NCBI GenBank assembly: GCA_015062395.1
Contig: SUUS01000001.1
Location: forward strand, 65,429-129,428
Reading direction: 5' to 3'
From: Alphaproteobacteria bacterium
Lineage (GTDB): Bacteria > Pseudomonadota > Alphaproteobacteria > CAAHEQ01 > UBA3637
DNA length: 64,000 nt
Shown here: piece after piece, positions 1,808 through 58,074 of the stretch
Layout: the number at the start of each line of letters is the position of its first letter
Numbering within the stretch: position 1 is the stretch's first letter
Translations under genes and position numbers: made by a program
Notes under the pieces: generated by a model
What the model was told of the DNA's origin: nothing
Database searches by the model: none
Seen by the model: the letters and a program-made list of their open reading frames with translations, nothing else

Positions 1808-1819
1808 GCAGCAATCCCT

Positions 1820-2782: not shown

Positions 2783-2853
2783 ATTTTGCTCCTTATAAAA
2801 AAATGCTGTACTTTTTTTTACAATAATATAGAATAAAAGTAAAGGAAAAGCAA

Positions 2854-3618: not shown

Positions 3619-3685
3619 AAATGATTGATATTTTTATAAAACATGCTATTGTATGAATAGTTTTTTTATAAAAAAGGATAGAATA

Positions 3686-8998: not shown

Positions 8999-9130
8999 AA
9001 TATCCTCTTTCATTAAAAATAATACCTTTGGCATTTTACAATCTTTTATTAAAAAATCAAGTCTTTTTATAAAAAAACTATTTGACGTTGCTTGTTTTTC
9101 TGCATACAATAGTCTTAGAGAGAGGGTTTT

Positions 9131-42213: not shown

Positions 42214-42414
42214 TCATTGTTATAAAAAAGAAAAGTCTATGGTTGTGAAATCTGGCTCGAAGGCCAAAATTTAATAGTTCGTGGAAAAATAGCCTTTTTA
42301 GGAAGAAATCAAAAATAGCTCGCAAATAAAGATTTTAAATCAGAAGAAAATATAGACTTGATACCAAAGAAACCAAAAATAAAATAAAAAAAATGAAAAA
42401 AATAAAAAAAGGTA

Positions 42415-42443
42415 TTGACAAGCATTTTTTTATTGTCTATAAT
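42415..42443 (+). promoter_or_regulatory. Consensus sigma-70 promoter of tRNA-Pro(UGG)
   Basis: TTGACA (42415-42420), 17 nt, then TATAAT (42438-42443). The tRNA starts 10 nt downstream. Confidence 0.6.
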
Positions 42444-42453
42444 GCCTTTTATT

Positions 42454-42530
42454 CGGAGCGTAGCTCAGTCTGGTAGAGTACTTGGTTTGGGACCAAGGTG
42501 CCGTAGGTTCAAATCCTATCGCTCCGACCA
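42454..42530 (+). tRNA. tRNA-Pro (anticodon UGG), CCA encoded
   Basis: CGGAGCGTAGCTCAGTCTGGTAGAGTACTTGGTTTGGGACCAAGGTGCCGTAGGTTCAAATCCTATCGCTCCGACCA. Cloverleaf folded by hand: acceptor CGGAGCG/CGCTCCG, anticodon stem CTTGG/CCAAG with loop TT-TGG-GA, T-arm GTAGG-TTCAAAT-CCTAT. Confidence 0.93.
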
Positions 42531-42534
42531 ATAT

Positions 42535-42567
42535 AAAAAAGCGGAAGTTTATACTTTCGCTTTTTTT
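42535..42567 (+). terminator. Rho-independent terminator after tRNA-Pro(UGG)
   Basis: GCGGAAGT (42541-42548) pairs with ACTTTCGC (42553-42560) with one G-U pair, then T7. Confidence 0.7.
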
Positions 42568-43058
42568 GTTGTCCAATTCCCCTGCAAAGCCCTAGGACAG
42601 CCAACTGCTGAAAAGTGATTTTATACCAAAATCGATGTGGTTGCCGAGATTTTTCCAAATTGATATATACTTTTGCCCGAATATATATACCTTGTGCAAT
42701 GTGATTTTTTCGCCAGAGCCACTTGACCGTAAGTTATTGTTTTTGAATAATTGATTATAATGGTATGACATTAACTTTCCGAATCTTGCCAAGCAGTGGT
42801 TGGTTTAGAAACCCAAAAACTGATACCACAATTTGCACACACCTCTAAAAGCCTTATTTTATAAGGAGTTTAAATTTTTTATAACTTATACACATGGTGT
42901 TTGGGGCATATAAAGAGATTTTCATTTTTTTTGAAAAAAATGACTATTTTCTTGCAATTTTAGGTAGAAGTCGTTAAAATGTGACGGATTATAATTTTAT
43001 GCTGATAAATGAGGTGTTTTCATGGCAGACGATATTCAAATTCAAAAAATGGACGGCA

Positions 43059-43178
43059 TCACCTTTTTTTCAAGCTTTTTGTGATTGCTTCAATACCCGC
43101 TTTTACAGCGCGGTCAGCATCGGCCTTGGTTAATCCTGCTGTTTTAGCAATAGCTTCAACTAATTCTGTTTTATTCAT
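43059..43178 (-). pseudogene. Truncated HU/IHF-family DNA-binding protein gene (5' fragment only)
   Basis: Reverse-strand ATG at 43178 has an AAGGAA upstream. It reads MNKTELVEAIAKTAGLTKADADRAVKAGIEAITKSLKK, the canonical HU N-terminus, then hits TGA right after an A7 run. Even with the frame corrected, only GDAV follows before all HU similarity is lost. Confidence 0.6.
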
Positions 43179-43322
43179 TGTATTTTCCTTTCTTTATATA
43201 TAAAGTTAAATGAAGGCTCATGATACCTTCATTTAGTATTAGAGAGAATTTAGATGGGTATGTCAAGAGGAAAATTAATTATACCAATAATCTGCATTAA
43301 GAGTGGCCAGTAATCTTTTTTC

Positions 43323-43351
43323 TTGACAAAAAAACAAAAAAGTGATATAAT
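43323..43351 (+). promoter_or_regulatory. Consensus sigma-70 promoter of the ProRS2-PPTase-ATP-grasp operon
   Basis: TTGACA (43323-43328), exactly 17 nt, then TATAAT (43346-43351). The ATG at 43394 is preceded by AGAGAGAGG. Confidence 0.6.
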
Positions 43352-43393
43352 ACGACATCGTGTTTTAAACATAAAAAGAGAGAGGCTATAAAA

Positions 43394-44908
43394 ATGACTT
43401 TAAAAAATACAAGAGCGAGCAACTATCCTGAGTGGTATCAGAATGTCATAACTGCAGCTGATATGGCAGAAGTATCTTCTTCGCCAGGATGCATGGTTAT
43501 TAAGCCTTGGGGGTATGGGATATGGGAACGTATTCAACGGGTTCTAGATGATAAGATCAAAGAAACAGGTCATGAGAATTGTTACTTTCCTCTATTTATT
43601 CCTTTAAGCTATTTTCAAAAAGAAGCAGAGCATGTTGAAGGTTTTGCTAAAGAAATGGCAATTGTTACTCATAGTCGCTTAACTATGCAAGATGGCAAAT
43701 TGACACCTGATGGAAAATTGGAAGAACCTCTTATTGTTCGTCCTACCTCTGAAACAATTATTGCGGATTCGTTCTCAAAATGGGTCAAATCATACAGAGA
43801 TTTGCCAATTATGATAAATCAATGGGCAAATGTTGTCCGTTGGGAGATGAGACCAAGAATCTTTTTACGAACAAGAGAGTTTTTATGGCAAGAAGGTCAC
43901 ACTGCACATGCTAGTTATGAGGAAGCGGAACAAGAAGCAAAAACCATGTTGAATGTGTATTCTGATGTGGCACGAGATGCTTTGGCTATGCCTGTTATAA
44001 AAGGACGCAAGCCCGAGCATGAAAAATTCCCAGGCGCTGTTGATACATATTGTATAGAAGCAATGATGCAGGATGGTAGAGCTTTACAAGCTGGTACCTC
44101 GCACTTTTTAGGCCAAAATTTTGCCAAATCAGCTGATATTAAGTTTCTAGGTAAGGATGGGAAACAACAATATGCATACACAACCTCTTGGGGTGTAACG
44201 ACACGTCTAATTGGTAGCTTAATTATGACGCACGCTGATGATGAAGGAATGGTCGTTCCTCCAAAGATTGCACCACATCAAATTGTTATCGTCCCTATCA
44301 TCAAAGATAAAGCTCAAAGAGAGGAAGTAATGTCCTACGTGATGCGCTTGTATTCTGCTTTATCTAAACAGAGCTATGATGGCGAAAAAATTCGTGTAAA
44401 AGTTGATACAAGAGACAAGGAATCTGTAGACAAAATGTGGGAGTGGACACGAAAAGGTGCCCCCATTGTATGTGAGGTTGGACCTCGTGACGTAAAAAAC
44501 AATGGTTTAATGGTCAGAACAAGAAATAAGATCAACACCCCAGAATGGAAACAAGTTGTTCAGTTTGATGATTTTGTTTCATCAGCTTCTAAGAGGTTGG
44601 AAGATTTCCATATGGATTTATATAACGCTGCGAATACTCGTTTACAACAAAATCAAAGAACAGATATTACAACGGCAGAGGAAATGCAAGCATATTTTGC
44701 GCAACAAAACTCTTGGGTAAACGGTCAAGGGCAAAAGGTAGCTTTTGTCCGTGGCAAATGGTCTGAAGATCCAGAAAGCGTTGATAAAATGAAGGAAATG
44801 AAAATTTCAATTCGCTGTATTCCTGAGGATCAATCTCAGAAGGAAGGAAATTGCCTTTTGACTAATAAAAAAGCGAAACTTGATGTTATTTATGCAAGAT
44901 CTTATTAG
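43394..44908 (+). CDS. proS: Prolyl-tRNA synthetase, archaeal/eukaryote-like type (no INS domain, ProRS-C1-type C-terminal domain)
   Basis: 504 aa. YPEWYQNVITAADMAEVSSSPGCMVIKPWGYGIWE and the following N-terminus are typical of type-II (archaeal/eukaryote-like) ProRS. Class II motifs RPTSET, FLRTREFLWQEGHTAH and TSWGVTTR. The C-terminus ends ...VIYARSY, with the conserved terminal Tyr of this subtype. Confidence 0.9.
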   Translation: MTLKNTRASNYPEWYQNVITAADMAEVSSSPGCMVIKPWGYGIWERIQRVLDDKIKETGHENCYFPLFIPLSYFQKEAEHVEGFAKEMAIVTHSRLTMQDGKLTPDGKLEEPLIVRPTSETIIADSFSKWVKSYRDLPIMINQWANVVRWEMRPRIFLRTREFLWQEGHTAHASYEEAEQEAKTMLNVYSDVARDALAMPVIKGRKPEHEKFPGAVDTYCIEAMMQDGRALQAGTSHFLGQNFAKSADIKFLGKDGKQQYAYTTSWGVTTRLIGSLIMTHADDEGMVVPPKIAPHQIVIVPIIKDKAQREEVMSYVMRLYSALSKQSYDGEKIRVKVDTRDKESVDKMWEWTRKGAPIVCEVGPRDVKNNGLMVRTRNKINTPEWKQVVQFDDFVSSASKRLEDFHMDLYNAANTRLQQNQRTDITTAEEMQAYFAQQNSWVNGQGQKVAFVRGKWSEDPESVDKMKEMKISIRCIPEDQSQKEGNCLLTNKKAKLDVIYARSY

Positions 44909-44913
44909 AAAAA

Positions 44914-45573
44914 ATGAGCAAAATTTTTCTTTATCATGTAGATAAATCAAAAATTGATGAGTCTCAGCTTTCTGTTCTGGAGTCTATTTTGTCAGCAACA
45001 GAAAACAAAAGATTTAAAAAGATAAAAATGATAGATGCGAGAAAGAATTTTATTCTTTCTCGTTTTCTGATTAATAAGGCATTAATGAATTTCAATTGTG
45101 CGCAAAGATTTCATATTGGTAGAACTATATATGGGAAACCATATTTATCTCCAAATCCTAAAAATTTAAAAATATCAATAAGTCATACGAGAGATATTAT
45201 TTGCCTTTTAATTGCAAAAAATATAGAGTTTATAGGTGTTGATATAGAGGAAAAAAACAGAAAAATAAATAAAAAAGGTATTATAAATTTTCTGTACTCT
45301 CCTGATGAAAAATTGTATCTTAAAACAAAAGATTTGTATAAAAATTTTTTTAAATATTGGACCTTTAAGGAGGCATTTACGAAAGCTCTTGGAAAAGGAC
45401 TTTTAATTCCATTTAATCAAATATCCTTTTCCAAAAAATACCAAAAGTATTATGTTACCTCTGTGCCTATTGATATAAACTCTAATACAACAGGGTTCAT
45501 AGTATGTTTAGATAAAAATGAAAGATCAGCCGATATTAACATAAATAATGTTATTATAGGAGGGATAAAATGA
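44914..45573 (+). CDS. Sfp-type 4'-phosphopantetheinyl transferase
   Basis: GKPYL, SISHT, IGVDIEE and YWTFKEAFTKALGKG (the W/KEA motif). It starts 5 nt after the ProRS2 stop. Confidence 0.85.
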   Translation: MSKIFLYHVDKSKIDESQLSVLESILSATENKRFKKIKMIDARKNFILSRFLINKALMNFNCAQRFHIGRTIYGKPYLSPNPKNLKISISHTRDIICLLIAKNIEFIGVDIEEKNRKINKKGIINFLYSPDEKLYLKTKDLYKNFFKYWTFKEAFTKALGKGLLIPFNQISFSKKYQKYYVTSVPIDINSNTTGFIVCLDKNERSADININNVIIGGIK

Positions 45574-46409
45574 AAAGAATTTGTATTGCGACAGATGAAG
45601 ATAATATCAATGATCCTGAGAATTTACTAATTAGTAAAATTCTTAATGACATGGGAGCTAAAGCAGAATTGACTATTTGGGATAAACAAGAAAGTCTTTT
45701 CAAAGATTGCGACTATGTTTTAATTCGTTCTTGTTGGAATTATCACAAATACCCAGATAAATTTATTCAATGGATAAATTCTCTCAATATTCCAACAATC
45801 AACGCTAAGAGTTTAATCCAATGGAATATTCATAAAAAATATCTTCTTGAGTTAGAAAAACACAATATTGAAATTCCAAAAACATATGTTATTCAAAAAG
45901 AAAATGTAAAAGATTTTAATTTTAATATATTTGATGAATTTGTAATAAAACCAGCAATATCAGCAAGTGGCTATTTGACATATAAATATAATAAAAATGA
46001 TAGTGAAAAGGTAAATTCTTTACTTCCATTGTATTCTTCAGATGTTTTAATACAAGAATTCATTCCGGAAGTAATACAAGAAGGTGAAATATCCTTTGTA
46101 TTTTTCAACAATAGCTTTTCACATGCTGTAAAAAAAATACCTTCACTATCTGATTTCAGAAGTCAAGCAAGATATGGAGGAACTGTTAAAAATTTTATTC
46201 CAAATCAAGCTTTAAAAAATAAGGCAGTAGAAATAGTACAAAAAATCATGGATATCACTAACGAATGCCCTTTCTATATGAGATTAGATGCGGTTTTGAG
46301 AAAAAATAATTTAGTTATAATGGAAATTGAGGCAATTGAACCCAGGCTTTTTTTATCGAATTCAAATTGTGATATCTTTAAAAAAGCTTGGCAATCTATT
46401 CTTCCTTAA
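45570..46409 (+). CDS. ATP-grasp ligase, RimK/GshB-like
   Basis: VIKPAISASG, VLIQEFIP, DFRSQARYGGT (compare the RimK EFRSN..GG motif) and LVIMEIEAIEP. ATGA overlap with the PPTase gene and a GGAGG RBS. Confidence 0.75.
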   Translation: MKRICIATDEDNINDPENLLISKILNDMGAKAELTIWDKQESLFKDCDYVLIRSCWNYHKYPDKFIQWINSLNIPTINAKSLIQWNIHKKYLLELEKHNIEIPKTYVIQKENVKDFNFNIFDEFVIKPAISASGYLTYKYNKNDSEKVNSLLPLYSSDVLIQEFIPEVIQEGEISFVFFNNSFSHAVKKIPSLSDFRSQARYGGTVKNFIPNQALKNKAVEIVQKIMDITNECPFYMRLDAVLRKNNLVIMEIEAIEPRLFLSNSNCDIFKKAWQSILP

Positions 46410-49400
46410 CTGTATCTTCTAAAAGGGATATATACAAAGAAGCCCAGTCTTTAATGGTATTTATATCAAAACGATGAACATGATACCAAAAATTAAAACG
46501 AAGATTGCTTTTCTGCATGTCGACTATCAGAAATAATCCCGCTAATTCTCTTAAGGTTGAATAGTTTAATGTATTCAACAATGGTTCTGAAATGGTTCCA
46601 AGTGTTTCTAAAACTTCTACTTTAGGCCAGACATTGTCTTTTTCTTTGTGATAATTATTCAGCATGATATAGGCATCTGTGAAATAACTTGATCGAGAGA
46701 AATTCAAAAACTTTTCGACATACTTAGGTAAAAGATTCACTGGGTAGTAAGACCTTTCATTCACAAGAGATACAATACTATTAATTTGGGTTATTTGTGT
46801 CATATTAGAAAGAGTTTCATCTAAAGAAATCGGAAGTGGGAATTGTTTAACGAATGGGCCTATTGTTTCTTTAAAATTATCCTCTGTTCGTCCATTGAAA
46901 ACAGTTCCTATTAATAAATTATGTTGTCTTGTTAATTTTACCAATAACTTCGAATAAACAAACAACAATACTGAAAAAACGGATACATGCGCTTTATGAG
47001 CAAATTTATTTAAGGATTCATATACTTTTTCTGAAGAAAAAATGGTATAGCAACTTGACGGATAACACTGTTCAAAAAATTCATCTCCGGTTTTATTTGG
47101 CAAAATTACAGGACGTGCAATACCAGCATATAACCCACCAAAGAAGGCTTCATTTTCCTTTTCTGTCTCCAGTAAAAATTTATGTTGCCAATCTACATAT
47201 TGATCATAGAGAACTGGATTTGGGAGTCTCAAATGTGATTTTTGAAGAAAAGAGGCATAAAATTTTCTTAATTCTTCAACAAATACCGTCACAGATGTTC
47301 CATCGAATGGCAAATGATGCGTAAAAAGAAGACATATAAACTGATTATTATTTAACTTTAAAATTTTTAAAATCCAAGGTGGGGTTTTTGTAATATCAGG
47401 AAAAGAAGATGTTAACGTACATGCTAAATTTTTTATATATTCAGCAACATTTTCTACACCCTTCATATTCACAAAAATACTTTCACTAGAAATGAAATCT
47501 TTTATATTACAAGTTTCATAATGATTATCAACATAACAATGTGTCAAAATTGGATGTCTTGAAATAACCTCTTTTAAGGCGTTCAAAAATGAATTCTTTT
47601 TTAGTTCGCAATGGAAAAGTATTGGTATCAATAAATATCCATATTTAATTCTTTCTAATGCCACCCACCTTTGTTCTTCATATGATAACTTGTTTTCACT
47701 ATTGTTCTTATCCAAGACAATCTCTGTTTTTTCACATAGTTTTTTATCCAATGATTTACTGGAACAATTTTTGATACAAAAGGCTGTTAAATTTCTTAAA
47801 GTTCTTTCTTTAAATACAACACTAACAGGGAATGAAATATTTAACAAATGTCTAATAGCGTTACGTAATTCTATTGCGCTTAAAGAATCAAGTCCCAAAT
47901 CAAAAAGATCATCATCTTTTTCAATATGGCAATTATGTGTATATTTGTCTAAAACTCGAGCAACTTCGGATGAGACAATACTAGGAATGTCTTGAATGCT
48001 GTATTGAGTTAATGTATCCGTGTTCTTTTCCTCAACAGGCAAATAATCTTTTGCTAACAATCTAAAGAACGGGCTATTTTCGAGTTTATATTTTCTTAAA
48101 AAGATATTCCAATTCATAGGTAATAAAATTACCTGTTCTTGTAAACTAAGTATTGATGACATTATCTCATCGAAATCGTTTTTTTTAAGATAAGAATATC
48201 CCTTTTCTTCTAATTTCTGCTGTAGATTCTTGTTTATATCAATAGTTCCTAAGTCCCCCCATGCTCCCCAATTAATACTTAATGCTGGTAATCCCAAAGA
48301 TATCCTATATTTACACACAGAATCCAAGAATGCGTTTGCTGTTGTATAATTAGATTGTCCAGGATTTCCTATTACGGATACAGCGGAAGAAAAGACTACA
48401 AAAAAATCTAACTGTGTATTTAAAGAGAGTTTATGTAAATTCCATACTCCAAGAACCTTTGCCTTTGCAATTTTCTTAAAGTCCTCCATAGTCGTATTTG
48501 TAAAGGATTTATCCTCAATACAACCAGCCGCATGCACAATTCCACCGATATTTTTTATATCAAGTTTTGAAGACAATGCAAAAAACTTGCTCTCATCGGA
48601 AATATCCATACTTATATATTCTAGGTCTAATGTGTCATCAAGCAGCTTTAAAGTTCTTATTTGTTCTATCACCTCATTCTTTTCCCGACGGCCAACTATC
48701 ACAATTCGTTTTGCACCATTTTTAATGAGCCACTTACTGGTTAAAAGTCCTAATGCACCTACCCCCCCTGTCACTAAATATTGTTTTTTAGGAACTATAG
48801 TGAGTTTCCGTTCTGATGATAAAGAAATGGGGGCTAAAGTTGCTTCAAAGACACTTTTCCCGCCTGGATCAATTTGAAAAAAACTAAACGACTTTTGCTG
48901 ACGTATACACGAAGCAATCTTTGAAATAGAATTTTCTGTCAATGCCTTTGCAAAAAAACAAGAGCATTTGATTTCTGAATTTTCAAGACAAATTGTTTTT
49001 AAAAGAGAAACTAGAGATTCATTTAAAAAGTCATTACCAACAAAAATAAACGAAATATTTTCTATTTTCCCCATTAAAAAGGCTTCTTTTAAGGAATAAA
49101 AAACGTTTTTGATCTTATTTAAATAAAGCCTTAAGATATCAGATGAGGTGTAATTCTGCACATCATCGGAAATACTGTCTATAACATATACAATACGTTC
49201 TATTTTCTTCTTAAAAGAATCAAGTTTTTCTTTTAAGAAGAATGAGTTATTTGAAATATCTGTACTTACAAGGAGATTCTTTTCTGATGAGAAGTGTGCT
49301 ATTTGACTTTTATCTCCTATAATTAACGAATTCTCTATATAAGATTTAGAAAAATTAGAAAGCGAAACTGATTCCCATTGAATTTTGTATAAATCGTTTC

Positions 49401-52400: not shown

Positions 52401-53811
52401 TGTCAATTACGACAAAATCTTTAGGAGTCATATAATTAGGCACCAGAGTACCAATGGATTGCTTTATATCCAAAATCTCAGTTTTTTCGTTTTTCAAGAC
52501 AATAAAAGCGACAAGGAAAGTGGGCCGATTTTCAGCCATTATCGGACAAACAGCACATTCAAGAACATTTTTATCTTTTGATAATAGGTACTCTATTTCT
52601 GCAAGTTCTATTCTATACCCACTTATTTTTACTTGGTCATCTTTTCGCCCAACGAATTCAAGTTGCTTTTTCTTGTTTAGCTTGACAATATCGCCTGTTG
52701 CATATAGAAGATTTTTTGTGTTTTGAGGATCTGGGATGAAAGATTTATTTGTATCCTTTGGATTATTTACATACCCTTTAGCAATAAACGGAGCACAGAT
52801 AAACAATTCACCCTCCGTAGTAGCTGTAAGTTTTTCATTTAGAATTTTTAACTGTATATTGGATATAGGCTTTCCTATGGGAGGGAGTTTCCCCCACTGA
52901 TTAACATTCTTTGGTAATGTAAACGAAGTGACAACATGGGTCTCACTCGGACCATACTGATTGATTAGACGGCAATGCTTTAGAATTTTAAAAAAAGAAC
53001 GAATTACTGGCGTTATAATCAACTGTTCACCGGCTGTGATTACTTCTTTAAGAGAGGTAGGAAAGGTTTTATTAAGATCTGCGATTTGCGCTATGTAATT
53101 TAACATTACTGCGGGGAGAAAAATCCGTTCAATCTTGAACTTGTCAATTAAGTACAGCAGTTTTTCAGGATCTTTTCTTTCATTTTCTTCAATCAGTACT
53201 AATGAAGCACCCGTACATAAAGTAGAAAAAATTTCTTGAAAAGAAACATCGAAGCTAATTGGGGCAAATTGTAATGTTCTTTTTATCGCAGATTCTTTAA
53301 TTTGCCATGTAATAAGATTTTCAAGAACTGATGTTGGCATAACAACACCCTTTGGAGCTCCCGTAGAACCAGAAGTAAATATAATATAGGCCAATTTACC
53401 AAAACCGTTATTGTTTACGGTTTTATTTCCCCTTGAATTTTTAATTATCTTTTCAAAAAAAACAAACTTTTTATTTCTTTTGTCAATGGTTACATCATCT
53501 GTGATAATTAAATTTGTACCGGATTTTTCCTGCATAAAATTCAAACGCTCGACAGGATAACTCTTATCAAGTGGAACATAAGGGTTTCCAGACTTTAGAA
53601 TTCCTAAAATAGAGATAATTAACTCTATTGATCTGTCAAATAGTACTCCTACTGGTTTCTTATAATTTAATGATTTTATATAACCTGCAACTAAATCTGA
53701 TTTGAAATCTAATTCTCCATAAGTTAGCTCTATACCATCCTTAATAATGGCTACCTTATCGGGAGTCTCGACACAAATCTTCTTAAAATTGTTATATAAA
53801 CTACTTTGCAT
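46396..53811 (-). CDS. Hybrid NRPS-PKS megasynthase, A-T-KS-AT-KR-ACP-C (2471 aa)
   Basis: All core motifs are found in order; see the domain sub-features. There is no TE or reductase release domain. The protein ends in a condensation domain with an intact HHxxxDG. Confidence 0.95.
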   Translation of the reverse strand: MQSSLYNNFKKICVETPDKVAIIKDGIELTYGELDFKSDLVAGYIKSLNYKKPVGVLFDRSIELIISILGILKSGNPYVPLDKSYPVERLNFMQEKSGTNLIITDDVTIDKRNKKFVFFEKIIKNSRGNKTVNNNGFGKLAYIIFTSGSTGAPKGVVMPTSVLENLITWQIKESAIKRTLQFAPISFDVSFQEIFSTLCTGASLVLIEENERKDPEKLLYLIDKFKIERIFLPAVMLNYIAQIADLNKTFPTSLKEVITAGEQLIITPVIRSFFKILKHCRLINQYGPSETHVVTSFTLPKNVNQWGKLPPIGKPISNIQLKILNEKLTATTEGELFICAPFIAKGYVNNPKDTNKSFIPDPQNTKNLLYATGDIVKLNKKKQLEFVGRKDDQVKISGYRIELAEIEYLLSKDKNVLECAVCPIMAENRPTFLVAFIVLKNEKTEILDIKQSIGTLVPNYMTPKDFVVIDKLPRTPSGKLDRKVLIQTYIEKKETTTHSELTKLEEIWRDLLHITDFDKNKTFFELGGTSLLLLQLYTKIFETFKQKIPVAMLLKNSTFNAVSDLLKGNIIQGKEAVIQDFGKPVKEKIAVIGMACNFPKCHTPDEFWNFLSTGKESIESFGPSQDLSMLDPFEHDVFCSSTIDDANLFDAEFFGYSKTEAEMMDPQQRKFLELSWELLEKTGYLNNNTTKKIGVFASQGFSSYLVNNLNPNLDYRSNRYFFERFSDLQVMMGGDKDYLPTKVSFKLGLEGPSINVQSACSSSLVAIHLAKQALLNGECEMALVGAVNIMSPSKHKYTFQKDMPWSPDGHTRTFDERSEGMMMAQGLGVVLLKPLSKAIKDKDNILAIISGSGVSNDGNNGKSNFLAPTIDGQTRSLQQALKDANILPDKISFIETHGTGTVVGDAVEIQALKNVFGNNRKRDCVIGSVKTNIGHLGWASGMAGIIKAILCIQHKQIPATLHFKKNNPLLELDDSPFYVNNKTIPWKSKKHYCLVNSFGLGGTNANVILESYSHKKNNQTKQKNNFYLFVFSGKKFEDLVKIIHNHRIFFENHRDLRLQDISYSLLKRKYHFDYRVSFVANTMDRLIYELSNTEKRLKLPSVTKDDFKVSQKQQLAFIFSGYTSQYFGMGKRLYEKNAIFKKKIQECNKIIKKFTDFDLIDIIWKQEKYSEQDVILNQLAIVAIEVSILEILKQMAILPKFVLGHSLGEYVAAYCAGILKLNELLQIVYHRAVLLTSLKIHAKMLAIRANKNTVEKLLENYNEISIASINTPNLVVVSGPTERILSLFKALHDQKIEAQKLDNSSFGHSSVANPLVAVYKKYLSKFSFKDPFIKLLSNVTGDFIQTGEISSDYWCNHMIQPVNFENMIHNLKNKDVDIFLEIGPNSVLLNMVAECYDEQNATYIPMMRKTTDDTEQLLSAFGKLFSKGISVNFDHILPKDNCLLIELPTYPFDLKKYYLEPVDLLQKASWRNDLYKIQWESVSLSNFSKSYIENSLIIGDKSQIAHFSSEKNLLVSTDISNNSFFLKEKLDSFKKKIERIVYVIDSISDDVQNYTSSDILRLYLNKIKNVFYSLKEAFLMGKIENISFIFVGNDFLNESLVSLLKTICLENSEIKCSCFFAKALTENSISKIASCIRQQKSFSFFQIDPGGKSVFEATLAPISLSSERKLTIVPKKQYLVTGGVGALGLLTSKWLIKNGAKRIVIVGRREKNEVIEQIRTLKLLDDTLDLEYISMDISDESKFFALSSKLDIKNIGGIVHAAGCIEDKSFTNTTMEDFKKIAKAKVLGVWNLHKLSLNTQLDFFVVFSSAVSVIGNPGQSNYTTANAFLDSVCKYRISLGLPALSINWGAWGDLGTIDINKNLQQKLEEKGYSYLKKNDFDEIMSSILSLQEQVILLPMNWNIFLRKYKLENSPFFRLLAKDYLPVEEKNTDTLTQYSIQDIPSIVSSEVARVLDKYTHNCHIEKDDDLFDLGLDSLSAIELRNAIRHLLNISFPVSVVFKERTLRNLTAFCIKNCSSKSLDKKLCEKTEIVLDKNNSENKLSYEEQRWVALERIKYGYLLIPILFHCELKKNSFLNALKEVISRHPILTHCYVDNHYETCNIKDFISSESIFVNMKGVENVAEYIKNLACTLTSSFPDITKTPPWILKILKLNNNQFICLLFTHHLPFDGTSVTVFVEELRKFYASFLQKSHLRLPNPVLYDQYVDWQHKFLLETEKENEAFFGGLYAGIARPVILPNKTGDEFFEQCYPSSCYTIFSSEKVYESLNKFAHKAHVSVFSVLLFVYSKLLVKLTRQHNLLIGTVFNGRTEDNFKETIGPFVKQFPLPISLDETLSNMTQITQINSIVSLVNERSYYPVNLLPKYVEKFLNFSRSSYFTDAYIMLNNYHKEKDNVWPKVEVLETLGTISEPLLNTLNYSTLRELAGLFLIVDMQKSNLRFNFWYHVHRFDINTIKDWASLYISLLEDTVKEE
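46399..47694 (-). other. C-terminal condensation domain (aa ~2040-2471)
   Basis: LLFTHHLPFDGTSVTVF (HHxxxDG, His2165/His2166/Asp2170). About 430 aa, the typical C-domain length. Confidence 0.8.
47767..47979 (-). other. ACP domain (aa ~1945-2015)
   Basis: LFDLGLDSLSAIELRNAI (Ser1976). Confidence 0.85.
48232..48786 (-). other. Ketoreductase catalytic subdomain (aa ~1676-1860)
   Basis: YLVTGGVGALGLLTSKWL, HAAGCIEDK (LDD-like, hinting at B-type), SSAVSVIGNPGQSNYTTANAFLD (Tyr1822). The preceding aa ~1450-1675 look like the structural psi-KR half, with no DH HxxxGxxxxP motif. Confidence 0.85.
49552..50475 (-). other. Acyltransferase domain (aa ~1113-1420), non-canonical specificity motifs
   Basis: FIFSGYTSQYFGMG appears in place of the usual GQGSQ. 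The active site is GHSLGEY (Ser1206). SFGHS sits where HAFH or YASH normally does. Confidence 0.85.
50782..52050 (-). other. Ketosynthase domain (aa ~588-1010)
   Basis: IAVIGMACNFP, DPQQRKFLE, VQSACSSSLVAIHLA (Cys760), ETHGTGT (His897), KTNIGHLGWASG (His935). Confidence 0.92.
52102..52314 (-). other. Thiolation (PCP) domain (aa ~500-570)
   Basis: FFELGGTSLLLLQL, with Ser530 as the phosphopantetheine site. Confidence 0.8.
52357..53811 (-). other. Adenylation domain (aa ~1-485), proline-like specificity code
   Basis: A3 YIIFTSGSTGAPKGV, A4 FDVSFQEIF, A5 NQYGPSETHV, A6 GELFICAPFIAKGY, A7 YATGDIV, A8 GRKDDQVKISGYRIELAEIE, A10 PRTPSGKLDRK. Boundaries are approximate. Confidence 0.9.
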
Positions 53812-54043
53812 GATTCTGAATGAAACTCACAACATCCCCTATCGCTTTCATTTTGGCTATTTCTTCATTTGGAAAAGAAATATTAAATTTTTCTTCCAAC
53901 CGAAAAAATAAATCCATTTTATCTAAGGAATCCACTTCCATTTCTTTAAAAGACATATCACTGGTCAATATCTTATCATGTAAAGCGAACTTTACCTCTT
54001 TTAACGTTTCTTGAACTATTTGAAAAATATCGTTATCACTCAT
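53801..54043 (-). CDS. Discrete acyl carrier protein
   Basis: 80 aa. MEVDSLDKMDLFFRLEE (DSL serine motif). AGGAGG RBS. Overlaps the megasynthase start by 11 nt. Confidence 0.8.
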   Translation of the reverse strand: MSDNDIFQIVQETLKEVKFALHDKILTSDMSFKEMEVDSLDKMDLFFRLEEKFNISFPNEEIAKMKAIGDVVSFIQNHAK

Positions 54044-55004
54044 TTTTGCCTCCTGTCAATGTTAATAAACAATTACACCAAGAAAAACCCGTTCCAAATC
54101 CAGATAATACAAGGTAATTAGCATCTTTTTGTTTCAGATGTGGCTCTAGGATTAATGGGATTGATGATGAACTCGTATTACCATAATTAGCCGCTTTGAA
54201 TTTTAACTGATTTTCTTTTAGATTCAGGGTCGAAGATAATCTTTCCAGTAGATATCTTGATGGTTGATGACACAAAAACTCAGAAATATCACAAGTATCC
54301 AGTCCGTTTTTTAACAATAAGTTTTTAATTGATGCTGGAATTTCTTTCAACACATTATTAAAGACCATACGACCATCCATTCTTAAAAAATTTTTTTCTA
54401 TTATGGTCTCATAAGAATTTGGCAATGTTCCAAAATCCCAATCTTTTAAAATATATCCTGTTGAAACATCTTTTGTTATATAAGTCACTGTTGCTGCGTC
54501 GCCAAAGAGTAATACTGTATTTTTATCTTTTGGGTCTAGAATCCTCGATAACTGGTCACATGTGAAGAAGAGAGCGTTTTTCAAATGAAGGGTTTTCATC
54601 ATAGATAAAACGGTTAGTAAAGCATGGCAAAAACCAGCACATCCTTGACCGATATCAAAAGTAATACATTTTTTTGATAAACCTATTTTATTATGTAAAA
54701 TCGCGGACATATATGGAGCCTTATGATCTGGTGTTTGTGTTACCGTACATACTAAATCAATATTTTCAATGTCAATTTTGATTTTTTTCTCTAAATCATG
54801 CCATGCAGATAAACACATATCAGCCAAAGTCTGATGTTCTTTTATTTTAGACCTCCTAATTATTCCCAATTTATTTTCTATGAAATCTGGACTTACCTCA
54901 AAAGTTGTTAATAAATCCATATTATTTACATAGTTATCTGGAATATAAGTGCCAATACATTTTATTTTAAAGTTTTGCAAGCTCATCCCTCCTATTGATT
55001 TCAT
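54036..55004 (-). CDS. KASIII (FabH-like) beta-ketoacyl-ACP synthase
   Basis: DIGQGCAGFCHAL (Cys), FLCHQPS (His), ANYGNTSSSSIPLIL (Asn): a complete Cys-His-Asn triad. The start is uncertain (55004 or 54986). Overlaps the ACP gene by 8 nt. Confidence 0.85.
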   Translation of the reverse strand: MKSIGGMSLQNFKIKCIGTYIPDNYVNNMDLLTTFEVSPDFIENKLGIIRRSKIKEHQTLADMCLSAWHDLEKKIKIDIENIDLVCTVTQTPDHKAPYMSAILHNKIGLSKKCITFDIGQGCAGFCHALLTVLSMMKTLHLKNALFFTCDQLSRILDPKDKNTVLLFGDAATVTYITKDVSTGYILKDWDFGTLPNSYETIIEKNFLRMDGRMVFNNVLKEIPASIKNLLLKNGLDTCDISEFLCHQPSRYLLERLSSTLNLKENQLKFKAANYGNTSSSSIPLILEPHLKQKDANYLVLSGFGTGFSWCNCLLTLTGGKNE

Positions 55005-56067
55005 ATATTGGGAAATATGTTGGAATTTCAGAATTTTGATAATCTAGTATTAGTTGTGGAATATCTTCCCAACAATAGGTATACACGTCATCTATTATAG
55101 GCATCCAATTGTGCGAAATTGCATAGTTCATCGCATCTAAAGCTTCCTGACGATTTGCATAATGAGTATTTACATGTATGTGTCGATTAATGCATTCAAC
55201 CGTTCTTGAAATAGGAAGTAAGGATCCTGTCTTCCAACCACATGATGAAATTACGGCGTTCCTTCCCAATCCTTTTAGTGCTATTTTTGTGAATGTTCCT
55301 CCTAAATTATCTATAAATATTGATGCTCCCTCATTATGTGTTTCTCTTGAAATATACGACAAAAAATCTTTTTCAAAATCCTTAAATGTGGTTCGATTTA
55401 TGGGGATTATCCCTGAAGAACGAGCATATCTCTCTCTGTACTCATTTGATACCGTCATATAAACACTAAACCCCACTTTTTTTGCGAGAAGAAGTTCAGC
55501 ATATGAAACTCCACCACCATAAGCAAAAACGGACAATCCCTTTGGCTTTCGTTTCGAAAAGGTTTGTATTTTCCAACAGCCATACGCTTGCCGCCAATTT
55601 GAATAAGCAGAAATGAAGCGACCAGAGAATGCGGCCCATTGTTTCAAGGAAAATTGTGAATTTGGGGGTATCTTAATAACCTGTTCCTCTTTCAATTTGA
55701 TTTTTTTTGCTAAATTTCCCATAATTCCTTTTGCATCATAACCCGCTATCTTTATCGGATAACCTTGGGCGTCAGAGATACCATTCCCAAAATAAATGGC
55801 AAAATCACCAATTTCCACTGAGGAAACCTTCTTTCCTCTATTTTGAATATAAAGAACACCAGTATTACCCAAAATTATTTCTTCTTCTGCTCTATCTTCA
55901 TTAATGTTTGTGGGAACTTTTTGTACAGCATGTAAGATGTTTGCTTCAAAACAACCATAAACAGGTAAAGCCAATACCTCATCATCCTCAATATCCGGAA
56001 AATGAATTATTTTTCGTTCTAAAATAGATGAATCCTTCTGTAAAACATACGCCTCTGTTTCAATCAT
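54967..56067 (-). CDS. MDR-superfamily NAD(P)-dependent oxidoreductase (enoyl-reductase or CCR-like candidate)
   Basis: 366 aa. Rossmann segment VFAYGGGVSYAELLLAKKVGFSVYMTVSNEYRERYARSSGIIPINR fits the MDR pattern GxGGVGxxAxQLAKxxGAxVxxT. GroES-like N-terminal half. Confidence 0.65.
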   Translation of the reverse strand: MIETEAYVLQKDSSILERKIIHFPDIEDDEVLALPVYGCFEANILHAVQKVPTNINEDRAEEEIILGNTGVLYIQNRGKKVSSVEIGDFAIYFGNGISDAQGYPIKIAGYDAKGIMGNLAKKIKLKEEQVIKIPPNSQFSLKQWAAFSGRFISAYSNWRQAYGCWKIQTFSKRKPKGLSVFAYGGGVSYAELLLAKKVGFSVYMTVSNEYRERYARSSGIIPINRTTFKDFEKDFLSYISRETHNEGASIFIDNLGGTFTKIALKGLGRNAVISSCGWKTGSLLPISRTVECINRHIHVNTHYANRQEALDAMNYAISHNWMPIIDDVYTYCWEDIPQLILDYQNSEIPTYFPIYEINRRDELAKL

Positions 56068-56840
56068 TTTTTGCTCCGAAGTAAATACGTTTTACTCAAA
56101 GTACTTGGCTGTATTTTGGATATTATACTAAAACCAATTTGTTTAATCTCATCCTCTGATACATCTTCGTATAAAAGAGTTGCAGCTTTTTGTGGTAAAC
56201 GTAACAGAATATTAACATTAGTTTTGGCGGTATCTTTAATTTTTAATAATGTTTTTTTCTTATTAGATAGTCCATTTGCTAAAAGTACGATATTTTCATC
56301 CTTATACGAGAAATCAAAGGATCTCTTTTTTATAAACGTGAAATCTTTTGAAATATCTTTGGAGCACGTCTGTTTGATATACGCTTCAGAGGCTTTAAGA
56401 GCTTGTGTATCATAATCCAAACAAACTGGTATAATCCTCTGATAATTTTGTTTAAGTTCAATTAATGTTTCAGGGTGGTATCCACTACCAGCCATAAGAC
56501 AACGTTTCTGGCTGGATAGATCCTTAATAAGATTAAATTCGCAAAGAACTCCAGCATATCCTTCTTTTTCAAGAATGGATATGCTATTTACCTTTTCACC
56601 ATTCAAAAAATCCTTAACCTTGTTCCTTTCTAATTCTTTTATATACTTATTCCATTTTAAAGAAATTTCCTTTTTATCATCAGAAGATAAAGAAGTAAGC
56701 AAGTCAGAGATTTCATTTTCAGATAAACCAATTAAAATCTTCCAAAAATCCTGAAAGACTAATAAGTCAGGTTCAGTGTAATAAGCCTTTAAAGGTATAG
56801 ATAAAACCTTTTGCGTAATTTGTAATATGGACACTCTCAT
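56064..56840 (-). CDS. Nicotianamine-synthase-like (CntL-like) SAM-dependent transferase candidate
   Basis: 258 aa. RCLMAGSGYHPETLIEL versus NAS VAFVGSGPLPLTSIVLA. VCLDYDTQALKASEAYI versus NAS xNxDxDxxANxxA. VLLANGLSNKKKTLLKI...ILLRLPQKAATLLYEDVSEDEIKQIGFSIISKIQPS...TYLLRSKK versus NAS VFLAALVGM..EEK.KVI...LVVRSAHGARAFLYPVVD..DI..GFEVLSVFHP...NSVIIARK. The comparison is from memory of the family consensus. Confidence 0.5.
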   Translation of the reverse strand: MRVSILQITQKVLSIPLKAYYTEPDLLVFQDFWKILIGLSENEISDLLTSLSSDDKKEISLKWNKYIKELERNKVKDFLNGEKVNSISILEKEGYAGVLCEFNLIKDLSSQKRCLMAGSGYHPETLIELKQNYQRIIPVCLDYDTQALKASEAYIKQTCSKDISKDFTFIKKRSFDFSYKDENIVLLANGLSNKKKTLLKIKDTAKTNVNILLRLPQKAATLLYEDVSEDEIKQIGFSIISKIQPSTLSKTYLLRSKK

Positions 56841-56875
56841 AATTCATACATCAAATCATTCAAACATTTTCGTTT

Positions 56876-56905
56876 AGTATACTTTAAAATACACCCTAGA
56901 GTCAA
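56876..56905 (-). promoter_or_regulatory. Candidate promoter for the NAS-like/MDR/KASIII/ACP/megasynthase operon
   Basis: Minus strand: TTGACT (56905-56900), 18 nt, then TATACT (56881-56876). It lies about 35 nt upstream of the ATG at 56840. Confidence 0.45.
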
Positions 56906-56912
56906 CAAAAAA

Positions 56913-57353
56913 TTACTCACTGACAGCAGTTGAAGAAAAAATAGCTTCTGCAACAATTCTATTGTTGATTCTAATTGTTCCTTCAAACTTATAAGCATTA
57001 CCGATAGAGTGTTTTTTTATAGCCTCAATGTAAAGAGTATCTCCAGGGCGAGCTTGCCCTCTAAATTTTGCACTTTCAATAGTCATAAAAAGAAAAATTA
57101 AATTATGACATTTTCTTTCTTTAAGGTCAAAATACATCAGTATATTCGACAATTGGGACATTGCTTCAACAAAGAAAGTTCCAGGAAAAATGGGGTTATT
57201 TGGGAAATGTCCTTTTAAGAAGAATTCATCTGATGAAATTTCTTTTATGCCCGAAATTTTATCACTGGTATAGTCCAACACAGCGTCAACCATCAACATA
57301 GGATAACGATGCGGAAGAATTGTTTTTATTTTTTCTAAATCTAAACTTGGCAT
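56913..57353 (-). CDS. fabZ: FabZ-like 3-hydroxyacyl-ACP dehydratase
   Basis: LPHRYPMLMVDAVLDY and GHFPNNPIFPGTFFVEAMSQ (catalytic His and Glu context). It is not in the usual lpxD-fabZ-lpxA context. Confidence 0.85.
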   Translation of the reverse strand: MPSLDLEKIKTILPHRYPMLMVDAVLDYTSDKISGIKEISSDEFFLKGHFPNNPIFPGTFFVEAMSQLSNILMYFDLKERKCHNLIFLFMTIESAKFRGQARPGDTLYIEAIKKHSIGNAYKFEGTIRINNRIVAEAIFSSTAVSE

Positions 57354-57386
57354 AAAAACTCCACTGGCTAGTTAGTATGGAAAATT

Positions 57387-57450
57387 TGTGATAAGAACAA
57401 CTTTTTAGACAGGGACAAAAGAATGTGTCTAAAAAGTTGTTCTTATCACA
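57387..57450. repeat. Perfect 25-bp inverted repeat with a 14-nt spacer
   Basis: TGTGATAAGAACAACTTTTTAGACA (57387-57411) and its exact reverse complement TGTCTAAAAAGTTGTTCTTATCACA (57426-57450). It lies 2 nt from the 3' end of tRNA-Pro(CGG) and 33 nt from the fabZ-like ATG. Confidence 0.9.
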
Positions 57451-57452
57451 TT

Positions 57453-57529
57453 TGGTCGGAGTGGCGGGATTTGAACCCACGACCCCTACGTCCCGAACGT
57501 AGTGCTCTACCAAACTGAGCTACACTCCG
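57453..57529 (-). tRNA. tRNA-Pro (anticodon CGG), CCA encoded
   Basis: Reverse complement is CGGAGTGTAGCTCAGTTTGGTAGAGCACTACGTTCGGGACGTAGGGGTCGTGGGTTCAAATCCCGCCACTCCGACCA. Acceptor CGGAGTG/CACTCCG, anticodon stem CTACG/CGTAG with loop TT-CGG-GA. Confidence 0.93.
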
Positions 57530-57653
57530 ATTTTTTATTTATCTTTTTTTGAAGTTATATCAAAAGAACCATAAAACATCAAGTATTTTTTAAAATTTTC
57601 TTGCCTTTTTTGCTATTTTCCAATATCATCAAATTAAAAAGTTGGAGTAAAAT

Positions 57654-58073
57654 ATGACAAAGTACGAAGAAAAAGTAAAACAATTTCACAAAGTAATGAA
57701 CTTACCTGTAAATAGTCAATTTAACGTTGAATTATTACAGTTAAGAAAAAAACTTATTTTAGAAGAAACTCAAGAACTTATTGCAGAGTTGGATTATGCG
57801 ATTAACCAACTTCAGACAAAAGATAAGTCCGTTTTACGCCCTACTTTCGAAAATATGTGTAAAGAAATGGCCGATGTACAATATGCTTTATCAGGACTGG
57901 CTATTTCTTTTGGTTTACCGATAGAAGAAGCTTTTGATGCTACACACAACAGCAATATGTCTAAATTAGGTAATGATGGGAAACCCGTTTACAGAGAAGA
58001 TGGAAAGATTACCAAAGGTCCAAATTATCATAAGCCAGATTTATCAAATCTTATTCAGAAAGTAGAAGAATAA
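57654..58073 (+). CDS. MazG-like nucleotide pyrophosphohydrolase domain protein
   Basis: 139 aa all-alpha protein. LILEETQELIAELD...EMADVQYALSGLAISFGLP has the EExxE/D metal-binding pattern of the MazG/dimeric-dUTPase superfamily. Confidence 0.6.
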   Translation: MTKYEEKVKQFHKVMNLPVNSQFNVELLQLRKKLILEETQELIAELDYAINQLQTKDKSVLRPTFENMCKEMADVQYALSGLAISFGLPIEEAFDATHNSNMSKLGNDGKPVYREDGKITKGPNYHKPDLSNLIQKVEE

Positions 58074-58074
58074 A

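Follow-up and report, generated by a model that had tools for sequence, protein, structure and literature searches.

Why does a biosynthetic gene cluster with a proline-type loading domain lie between a gene for prolyl-tRNA synthetase (ProRS, encoded by proS) and a gene for tRNA-Pro? The question is raised by a 64-kb stretch of an alphaproteobacterial genome (contig SUUS01000001.1; referred to below as the window, at its full length), in which two tRNA-Pro genes face each other across about 15 kb that hold a proS gene and a hybrid nonribosomal peptide synthetase-polyketide synthase (NRPS-PKS). An earlier note on this DNA had offered two readings of the interval, a genomic island that entered at a tRNA-Pro gene long ago or a functional proline regulon. 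With the balance of probability slightly in its favor, we prefer an account in which a 12.5-kb NRPS-PKS cluster was acquired horizontally between proS and tRNA-Pro(CGG), and in which the linkage to proS is selected, likely for self-protection.

The full 64 kb was scanned for tRNA genes with ARAGORN and for RNA families with Rfam. The window has two tRNA genes, both tRNA-Pro (66-67 bits in Rfam), and they are convergent, with their 3′ ends directed into the interval. The earlier note's description of this pair, with its UGG and CGG anticodons, coordinates, and encoded CCA, is borne out by both programs. Each gene terminates in ...CCGACCA, so the CCA is gene-encoded in both, and each has a C1:G72/A73 acceptor end of the bacterial type. 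Rfam found no further RNA family, leader, or riboswitch beyond these tRNAs. The source organism is uncultured, and its proteins are on record from metagenome assemblies of JGI and ENA and from an NCBI metagenome-assembled genome labeled "Alphaproteobacteria bacterium". Gene identities come from Pfam and NCBIfam scans of the open reading frames (ORFs) in the window, and the features on which the argument turns are as follows.

42454-42530, plus strand: tRNA-Pro(UGG) (ARAGORN; Rfam)
43394-44908, plus strand: archaeal/eukaryotic-type (E-type) ProRS of 504 aa, hereafter ProRS-504, the "ProRS2" of the earlier note (Pfam, TIGR00408)
44914-45573, plus strand: Sfp-type 4′-phosphopantetheinyl transferase (PPTase), first gene of the species-specific segment
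45570-46409, plus strand: DcsG-like ATP-grasp ligase, missing from the other versions of the cluster
46396-53811, minus strand: hybrid megasynthase of 2471 aa (Pfam)
53801-54043, minus strand: stand-alone acyl carrier protein (ACP) of 80 aa (Pfam)
54036-55004, minus strand: KASIII (FabH-like) ketosynthase or acyltransferase (Pfam/NCBIfam)
54967-56067, minus strand: MDR-family NAD(P)H oxidoreductase (Pfam/NCBIfam)
56064-56840, minus strand: 258-aa protein (profile comparison)
56913-57353, minus strand: FabZ-type 3-hydroxyacyl-ACP dehydratase, first gene of the minus-strand operon (Pfam/NCBIfam)
57453-57529, minus strand: tRNA-Pro(CGG) (ARAGORN; Rfam)
57654-58809, plus strand: MazG-like pyrophosphohydrolase and acyl-ACP thioesterase, core genes

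Borders were set by blastn and gene-order comparison of the window with contigs of related organisms. Homology to relatives stops at two points, and the species-specific segment is therefore 44914-57452, 12.5 kb in length, with its left edge 5 bp past the stop codon of proS-504 and its right edge exactly at the 3′ end of tRNA-Pro(CGG). On the left, contigs of a sister species (L010/L011; ProRS 89% identical in amino acids and 82% in nucleotides) align over 43313-44913 only, which is the promoter and proS to 5 bp beyond its stop codon; there, the proS neighbors are cstA and a metallophosphatase gene, with dnaA nearby. On the right, L027/L028 (thioesterase 74% identical) keep tRNA-Pro(CGG) in place upstream of the MazG and thioesterase genes, and blastn homology begins at base 57453, the last base of the tRNA. 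Past its CCA, these contigs carry unrelated DNA with small unknown ORFs and a membrane protein, and neither FabZ nor a PKS gene is found there; the FabZ-type gene is missing from the same position in L027. Another relative, L024, retains the order MazG, thioesterase, RecJ, Fic, PPIase, and GyrA, with identities of 77% for the thioesterase, 84% for both RecJ and GyrA, and 90% for the PPIase. Because the MazG and thioesterase genes are syntenic in relatives without the cluster, they lie outside it, and their candidacy as cluster members was rejected. The relatives of flanking genes thus range from 74 to 90% identity, in contrast to 34% for the best foreign relative of the megasynthase, for which a search of 5.8 billion proteins gave nothing above that value in any other species. 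RecJ, used as a lone protein probe of GTDB genomes, gave no match. Within the species, the cluster is present in all ten distinct places shown (22 contigs read), so no presence/absence polymorphism was seen.

On this comparison, the 15-kb interval is best described as a mosaic and not as one island. tRNA-Pro(CGG) is the only tRNA that is a demonstrable border and, by the alignments, marks the insertion site, while the proximity of tRNA-Pro(UGG) is probably incidental. The proposal of a 15-kb island at a tRNA-Pro gene survives in that accessory DNA does abut the 3′ end of tRNA-Pro(CGG), but only 12.5 kb of the 15 kb is foreign, and the left boundary that can be demonstrated is the proS stop codon at ~44913 and not tRNA-Pro(UGG).

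The 3′ ends of tRNA genes are classic, generic landing sites for genomic islands. Two of five features of such islands are present here (position and absence from relatives), two are lacking (an integrase and an att repeat), and the fifth, composition, is equivocal. The GC content is 0.314 in 44914-57452 and 0.337 in the remainder of the window. The segment is the lowest of 206 sliding 12.5-kb windows, in an overall range of just 0.314-0.358. Codon positions 1 and 2 account for the deficit (Mann-Whitney p = 0.004 and 0.03); GC at codon position 3 (GC3) is 0.24 inside and 0.22 outside the segment (p = 0.1), so it is not lower. The earlier note had compared single 60-nt lines, whose GC counts are noise and overstated a contrast that amounts to ~2 points between the segment and the rest of the window, with no lowering of GC3. 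Composition is not a convincing marker of the segment. Since no integrase, att repeat, or GC3 shift was found, the cluster either entered long ago or derives from a donor whose GC content was similar.

Did proS-504 arrive with the cluster? ProRS-504 scores 490 bits against TIGR00408 (proS_fam_I; equivalog cut-off 437) and carries the Pfam domains PF00587, PF03129, and PF09180 (class II core, anticodon-binding, and ProRS C-terminal). It has 118 orthologues at ~69-89% identity, the named ones mostly labeled as Alphaproteobacteria metagenome-assembled genomes (MAGs), and its divergence from the sister species (89% in amino acids) parallels that of the core genes RecJ (84%), GyrA (84%), and PPIase (90%). 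These comparisons indicate that ProRS-504 is the lineage-typical resident copy and not cargo imported with the cluster. The island reading of the earlier note had counted "ProRS2" as part of the island, which does not stand with orthologues at 69-89%, cluster-free contexts in four relatives, and no private substitutions at conserved columns. The strongest case for a single old tRNA-Pro island reaching from tRNA-Pro(UGG) to tRNA-Pro(CGG), "ProRS2" included, would draw on the convergence of both tRNAs on the segment, on the 0.8 kb of junk beside tRNA-Pro(UGG), which with its cut-short HU gene records a past rearrangement, and on the fact that the neighbors of ProRS-504 differ in every relative examined. 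Its GC3 of 0.30 is also the highest among the non-cluster genes of the window (mean 0.22) and nearly equals the value of its orthologue on a relative's contig of higher GC content (0.31). The high GC3 is ambiguous as evidence of recent transfer, because proS in the low-GC relative L007 is likewise GC3-rich compared with its neighbors. With ProRS-504 diverging in step with RecJ, GyrA, and PPIase, with its sequence canonical among the 118 orthologues, and with neither a tRNA-fragment repeat nor an integrase found, we consider one island over the whole 15 kb decidedly unlikely.

What the segment encodes can be read in some detail. The PPTase gene starts 5 nt past the proS-504 stop codon on the same strand, and the ATP-grasp gene starts within the PPTase gene, with an overlap of 4 nt; from this spacing, both genes appear to have been appended to the proS transcription unit. 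Convergent to that unit is a tight minus-strand operon of the fabZ-like gene, the 258-aa gene, the MDR reductase, KASIII, ACP, and the megasynthase. The domain order of the megasynthase is A(Pro-type)-T-KS-AT-KR-ACP-C, all Pfam domains scoring far above their cut-offs, and with A, T, KS, AT, KR, ACP, and C in one polypeptide and a PPTase alongside, it qualifies as a hybrid type I NRPS-PKS. When the pocket region of the adenylation (A) domain was compared with the PDB, the best matches were GrsB1 (105 bits) and TycB1 (100 bits), the two solved Pro-activating domains, and the next match fell to 57 bits. PltF-type ligases also appear among the comparison matches of the A domain. Its signature, read by hand from the alignment, is D-V-Q-(F/L)-I-A-Q-V-V, which agrees at 8 of 9 pocket positions with what we take to be the canonical proline code, DVQ(F/L)IAHVV or DVQxIAHVVK, and differs by H322Q. 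The signature motifs are conserved in 12 megasynthases of the family, and the Q322 signature is widespread in ordinary NRPSs (at least 600 matches). Judged by sequence, the A domain is proline-type, in agreement with the Pro-activating synthase proposed in the earlier note. The A-domain alignment gave no match in IMG/VR. The MDR oxidoreductase is a probable trans-acting enoyl or other reductase. A weak match of the FabZ-type protein to the cispentacin enzyme AmcE was rejected as generic hot-dog-fold homology, and a window ABC transporter at 37947-39713 was rejected as part of the cluster because it has only generic 30% similarity to an exporter in the related locus L193. In one contig of the same species from another sample (L014:1-6158), the megasynthase is called as two ORFs of 2236 and 203 aa, owing either to a frameshift in that strain or to misassembly.

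The 258-aa protein is the least conventional member of the operon. It has no Pfam or NCBIfam match, and its AlphaFold model (pLDDT 41) is unusable. A profile built from this protein and its homologue in the related locus L034 matched CntL (7c7m) at E = 5e-7 over ~160 columns and thermoNAS at E = 0.04-0.07. On this match, which lies below the Pfam and NCBIfam thresholds, it may be a distant relative of CntL and nicotianamine synthase (NAS), which are S-adenosylmethionine (SAM)-dependent 3-amino-3-carboxypropyl transferases. An hhalign comparison found no relation between the 258-aa family and the methyltransferases of the related loci L029 and L193; these match HvrF-type methyltransferases in the PDB, with no AzeJ or VioH entry among their PDB matches at E ≤ 0.001.

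Does the neighborhood of proS mean anything beyond one genome? Five loci share the megasynthase architecture and make up the cluster family: the window, L029/L030, L031/L032, L034, and L193. The distant family megasynthases are 32-38% identical, KASIII is kept in L029 and L031 at 44-45% identity, and the MDR reductase is the best family marker, at 46-51% in L029, L031, and L193. The NAS-like gene occurs in two of the five. The hosts are gut Alphaproteobacteria, a Moraniibacteriota MAG, a plasmid-like element, and other low-GC hosts. In L029/L030, the order is reductase, KASIII, ACP, megasynthase, methyltransferase, insertion sequence (IS) remnants, E-type proS, MFS, a beta-lactamase-like gene, and an NRPS, with conjugative type IV pilus and shufflon genes adjoining. 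The core of L031/L032 is embedded in fatty-acid synthesis genes and followed 1.2 kb downstream by an E-type proS; at L031:843-18348 (26% GC), the PPTase, reductase, KASIII, ACP, and megasynthase lie between accA and accB/birA. L034, from the Moraniibacteriota MAG, starts with tRNA-Asn and a 729-aa large serine recombinase (1814-4048), and it continues in a co-directional run of an AMP-ligase, an E-type proS, a VanX-like peptidase, a PPTase, the homologue of the 258-aa protein, A-T, and KS-AT-KR-ACP-C, an arrangement which suggests that this cluster rides on an integrative element. An NRPS-PKS is unusual for a small-genome lineage of the candidate phyla radiation, and mis-binning is possible. 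L193 has the core together with a methyltransferase, an ABC exporter, and a beta-lactamase-like gene.

An E-type proS thus lies 1.2-2.4 kb away in L029/L030, L031/L032, and L034. The linked synthetases are 42-46% identical to ProRS-504, and those of L029 and L031 are 43% identical to each other; the L029 and L034 proteins exceed the E-type equivalog cut-off of NCBIfam, and the L031 copy has the E-type C-terminal domain. The control set consisted of 79 further GTDB loci, together 1.27 Mb, whose A domain is of the same type. An E-type proS falls within 3 kb in four of the five family loci, and none of the 79 control loci contains a proS at all (Fisher p = 2.6e-6). The proS gene takes four different positions and orientations across the family, and this argues for selection on the linkage instead of shared ancestry of one arrangement. 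From these comparisons, the linkage looks selected or functional and not accidental. Recombinase, IS, or conjugative-pilus genes adjoin in two of the loci, which suggests that proS may also travel as mobile-element cargo. No tRNA-Pro gene was found in the four other family loci (L029-L034, L193), so the tRNAs lie outside the conserved unit. What had been called a proline regulon therefore stands as to its proline-type A domain and recurrent E-type proS, but not as to the tRNA-Pro genes, which are not conserved with the clusters.

These results can be assembled into a provisional history and mechanism. Resident in the interval would be tRNA-Pro(UGG), the decayed spacer in which the truncated HU gene lies, and the E-type proS native to the lineage; the cluster at 44914-57452 would have been gained horizontally in the lineage of this species, filling the gap from the proS stop codon to tRNA-Pro(CGG). 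The megasynthase is predicted to load proline or a close cyclic analogue, add one malonyl unit, and reduce the beta-keto group, and the chain would be off-loaded through the terminal condensation (C) domain. KASIII, ACP, the reductase, and the FabZ-like enzyme may build or tailor a second acyl piece, and the ATP-grasp enzyme could form an amide bond or ring. The product is likely to be proline-derived or to mimic proline. The most likely reason for the linkage would be a disturbance of prolyl-tRNA synthesis by a proline mimic, either the product or an intermediate, in which case the adjacent E-type ProRS might be an insensitive form that gives self-protection. Self-protection would be the most economical reading of the proS linkage and would parallel the roles of MupM, BorO, and AcmD, and a proline-mimic pathway is plausible given the CntL/NAS-like match and the aminoacyl-tRNA synthetase (aaRS), ATP-grasp, A-domain, and mobile-element genes of AzeJ neighborhoods.

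Several observations weigh against selected linkage for self-protection after horizontal acquisition. In Pfam, none of the ten called genes from proS (43394) to the MazG-like gene (58073) has a recombinase, transposase, or integrase domain; neither tRNA 3′ end has a second copy in the window when up to 3 mismatches in 19 nt are allowed; and a direct-repeat search returned no repeat family of the tRNA 3′ end. The earlier note had already reported by eye that integrase, transposase, and duplicated tRNA 3′ fragment were missing, and the domain scan and repeat searches uphold it. Orthologues of ProRS-504 at 89%, 75%, and 74% lie among housekeeping genes without a cluster or tRNA nearby, and the L007 orthologue (81%) sits behind an IS transposase and ahead of a radical-SAM cluster, with no such NRPS-PKS cluster. 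The adjacency seen here could reflect the landing spot of an island. ProRS-504 also has zero private substitutions at columns at least 95% conserved in the 118 orthologues, so it is not a specialized resistant allele, and any protection by an unmodified enzyme would have to be E-type class-wide or work via dosage. Finally, L193 has no proS within 10 kb, and the linked proS of L031 and L034 could be the host's only copy. We can only speculate that the ABC exporter of L193 serves as an alternative form of protection.

Three other accounts of the proline theme deserve comparison. The ProRS and tRNA-Pro genes might form a supply unit that feeds Pro-tRNA(Pro) to a step of the pathway, in the way that the SerRS VlmL for valanimycin and the AlaRS AcmD for ascamycin serve aminoacyl-tRNA-dependent steps. 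Such cluster-encoded synthetases are documented (PMC12945691), a ProRS, two tRNA-Pro genes, and a proline-type synthase are indeed clustered here, and proS recurs across the family. However, none of L029-L034 or L193 has a tRNA-Pro gene, no Fem/GNAT, CDPS, LanB, PEARL, or aaRS-like transferase was detected in the cluster, and the A domain, going by its signature, already activates proline directly. We regard a tRNA-dependent step as very unlikely. A proline-mimic variant would have the CntL/NAS-like enzyme make azetidine-2-carboxylate (AZE) or a related SAM-derived imino acid, the H322Q A domain load it, and the ProRS keep the free mimic from being mischarged in translation. Nicotianamine synthases build an azetidine ring from SAM, AZE is accepted by Pro-specific A domains, and ProRS mischarges it (PMC11794875). 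AzeJ-type neighborhoods often have aaRS, ATP-grasp, A-domain, and mobile-element genes, including in the candidate phyla radiation (PMC11794875), and the present family offers an ATP-grasp gene here, a locus from a Moraniibacteriota MAG (L034), and a 258-aa protein that, with its L034 homologue, matches the CntL/nicotianamine synthase family. Against this, the NAS-like gene occurs in just two of the five family loci, the L029/L193 methyltransferase is HvrF-type with no AzeJ or VioH entry among its PDB matches at the cut-off given above, CntL-type enzymes usually alkylate an amine and do not cyclize, and the Q322 signature, with its at least 600 matches, is common in ordinary NRPSs. The azetidine route is unlikely in our estimation.

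It could also be that the position means nothing and that the product, perhaps an opine- or nicotianamine-like metallophore or a lipid, is unrelated to prolyl-tRNA synthesis. A native, unmodified proS-504, tRNA genes that are generic island targets, a CntL-like gene that hints at a metallophore, and an L193 locus without proS would all fit such a coincidence. What this account leaves unexplained is the distribution of proS (four of five family loci against 0/79 controls, p = 2.6e-6), its place within an operon on a recombinase-bearing element in L034, and its flanking by IS remnants and by conjugative-pilus genes in L029, and so we doubt it to much the same degree as the azetidine route. A broader proposal goes further and describes a mobile, phylogenetically scattered family that makes a proline-derived or proline-mimicking hybrid aimed at ProRS, with E-type ProRS as its portable or co-opted immunity. 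This remains tentative, and we think it the less probable outcome.

The remaining features of the locus add detail on its expression and past. They are given below, together with the second ProRS of the window.

34919-36637, minus strand: bacterial-type (P-type) ProRS of 572 aa with an INS editing domain, hereafter ProRS-572 (NCBIfam)
42415-42443, plus strand: perfect consensus sigma-70 promoter (TTGACA, 17-nt spacer, TATAAT), 10 nt 5′ of tRNA-Pro(UGG)
~42536-42566, plus strand: terminator, hairpin and T-run, 3′ of tRNA-Pro(UGG)
42567-43312: non-coding, decayed-looking spacer of ~0.8 kb that holds the HU fragment
43059-43178, minus strand: truncated HU (Bac_DNA_binding) gene, N-terminal 39 codons followed by a stop
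43323-43351, plus strand: perfect consensus sigma-70 promoter with extended -10 TG, 5′ of proS-504
57387-57450, minus strand: perfect hairpin with a 25-bp stem (-35 kcal/mol, z = -10.7)

Within 42000-58200, the only sequences that match the sigma-70 consensus at 12 of 12 positions are the two promoters 5′ of tRNA-Pro(UGG) and proS-504, and the latter falls in the part of the sequence that the sister species shares. The hairpin on the right begins 2 nt past the CCA of tRNA-Pro(CGG), is followed by a weak U-tract, and is unique in the window; it is segment-specific and not found in relatives. It is probably a tRNA 3′ processing or termination signal and insulator, to judge from its structure and placement. 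The operon from FabZ to the megasynthase starts 33 nt past the hairpin, and because it has no convincing promoter of its own, read-through from the tRNA-Pro(CGG) promoter is possible. To the left of proS-504, the spacer has no counterpart in the loci of relatives, and the region 42531-43393 has no match in the plasmid collection. The HU fragment is present in all four same-species contigs that cover its position and marks an old breakpoint or rearrangement scar between tRNA-Pro(UGG) and proS-504. Left of tRNA-Pro(UGG) is a split autotransporter, with a passenger ORF at 39863-41041 and a beta-barrel ORF at 41389-42213 in different frames and 348 nt apart; the whole (39863-42213) is probably a pseudogene. 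A MoxR AAA+/DUF58/DUF4381 operon at the left end of the window (402-2875) and a class I aaRS of the Val/Ile/Leu type (907 aa, 6386-9109) are ordinary and core-like.

One genome here carries both an INS-containing bacterial-type and an archaeal/eukaryotic-type ProRS, 8 kb apart. Both exceed their NCBIfam equivalog cut-offs, and as opposite evolutionary types they are 25-28% identical over partial local alignments. Presumably, neither belongs to the short form without INS that characterizes classical Alphaproteobacteria. ProRS-572 heads a co-oriented housekeeping run of proS, plsY, dprA, and topA, which is read here as an operon. Its relatives were sought by an exhaustive HMMER search clustered at 50% identity and by a metagenome scan of which the best 80 matches were listed. 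The nearest sampled relatives are about 50-61% identical, many of them from compositionally different organisms. The best match among the HMMER clusters is at 53%, with one Clostridia MAG at 52%, and the best 80 metagenome matches listed are at 49-61%, the inspected ones mostly high-GC and none of the 80 with plsY/dprA/topA synteny; contigs of the same species are not among the matches listed by that scan. A second unusual aaRS-flanked cluster in the clade is seen in the relative L007 (8728-21515). There, proS follows an IS (rve) transposase and precedes a compact cluster encoding a radical-SAM/SPASM enzyme, a ScmC-like protein, a nucleotidyltransferase, a PNP/MTA-nucleosidase-like protein, two radical-SAM enzymes, and a HAD hydrolase, which ends at an AlaRS-like gene; two of its proteins have no informative PDB match.

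Comparison with known systems separates what is ordinary at this locus from what is not. Islands that adjoin tRNA genes and orphan NRPS-PKS clusters are ordinary, as is the tRNA bracketing itself. The Yersinia High-Pathogenicity Island at tRNA-Asn is a tRNA-associated island with NRPS/PKS cargo, and as in that island, the cargo here abuts a tRNA 3′ end while relatives without the cargo retain the tRNA and the other flank. Unlike it, the present segment has no P4-type integrase, no direct repeat of the tRNA 3′ end, and typical GC3, and its distal border is the stop codon that ends a housekeeping-type gene and not an att site. Proline-primed polyketide pathways are also familiar from anatoxin-a (AnaC/AnaD) and from the pyrrole-forming PltF/PigI systems. 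The logic of a proline-type adenylation that begins a chain extended by a PKS module is shared with them, but here a single polypeptide joins A and T with the PKS module, there is no prolyl-carrier-protein oxidase, and release is by a terminal C domain. With staphylopine CntL and nicotianamine synthase, the 258-aa protein shares a match to the SAM-binding core (E = 5e-7 to 7c7m); in contrast to CntL systems, the cluster has no CntM-type opine dehydrogenase or CntK racemase, and the protein has no match at the Pfam or NCBIfam threshold. The AzeJ/VioH clusters II-IV come closer in content, since they too bring together a SAM enzyme, a Pro-type A domain, ATP-grasp, aaRS, and signs of mobility and reach into candidate phyla radiation bacteria (PMC11794875). 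They differ in that the SAM-enzyme candidate here is CntL/NAS-like and not an AzeJ-type MT1, in the full PKS module of the present cluster, and in that their aaRS is listed as a class I tRNA ligase (PMC11794875, figure legend) whereas ProRS belongs to class II.

What is out of the ordinary is the recurrent coupling of one cluster family to ProRS across megasynthases of 32-38% identity, together with a proline-type loading domain. No genomic clue to the mode of action of an antibiotic is more reliable than an embedded copy of the enzyme that it targets. In the literature, of which our coverage was partial, we met no account of a bacterial cluster with a ProRS embedded in it and no bacterial natural product directed at ProRS; a review of aaRS inhibitors names as ProRS inhibitors only febrifugine, which is a plant alkaloid, halofuginone, which derives from it, and synthetic compounds (PMC7916415). 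If the broader proposal above is true, bacteria would here have their first natural-product system aimed at ProRS, and the family would be a ready case for target-directed genome mining. A rumen/gut alphaproteobacterium would then be a testable source of the compound and a natural experiment on the sensitivity of bacterial-type and archaeal/eukaryotic-type ProRS. The closest precedents are the aaRS immunity genes of other clusters, namely MupM for mupirocin (a eukaryote-like IleRS), BorO for borrelidin (ThrRS), AcmD for ascamycin (AlaRS), and SbzA for SB-203208 (IleRS) (bioRxiv 10.1101/2020.06.01.128595; PMC12945691). The present case differs from these in that the enzyme is a ProRS, the linked copy is lineage-typical and not a visibly divergent paralogue, and the inhibition is putative. 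Like them, it has an aaRS linked to a PKS/NRPS, a second aaRS of the other type in the genome, and retention of the aaRS in homologous clusters of unrelated hosts.

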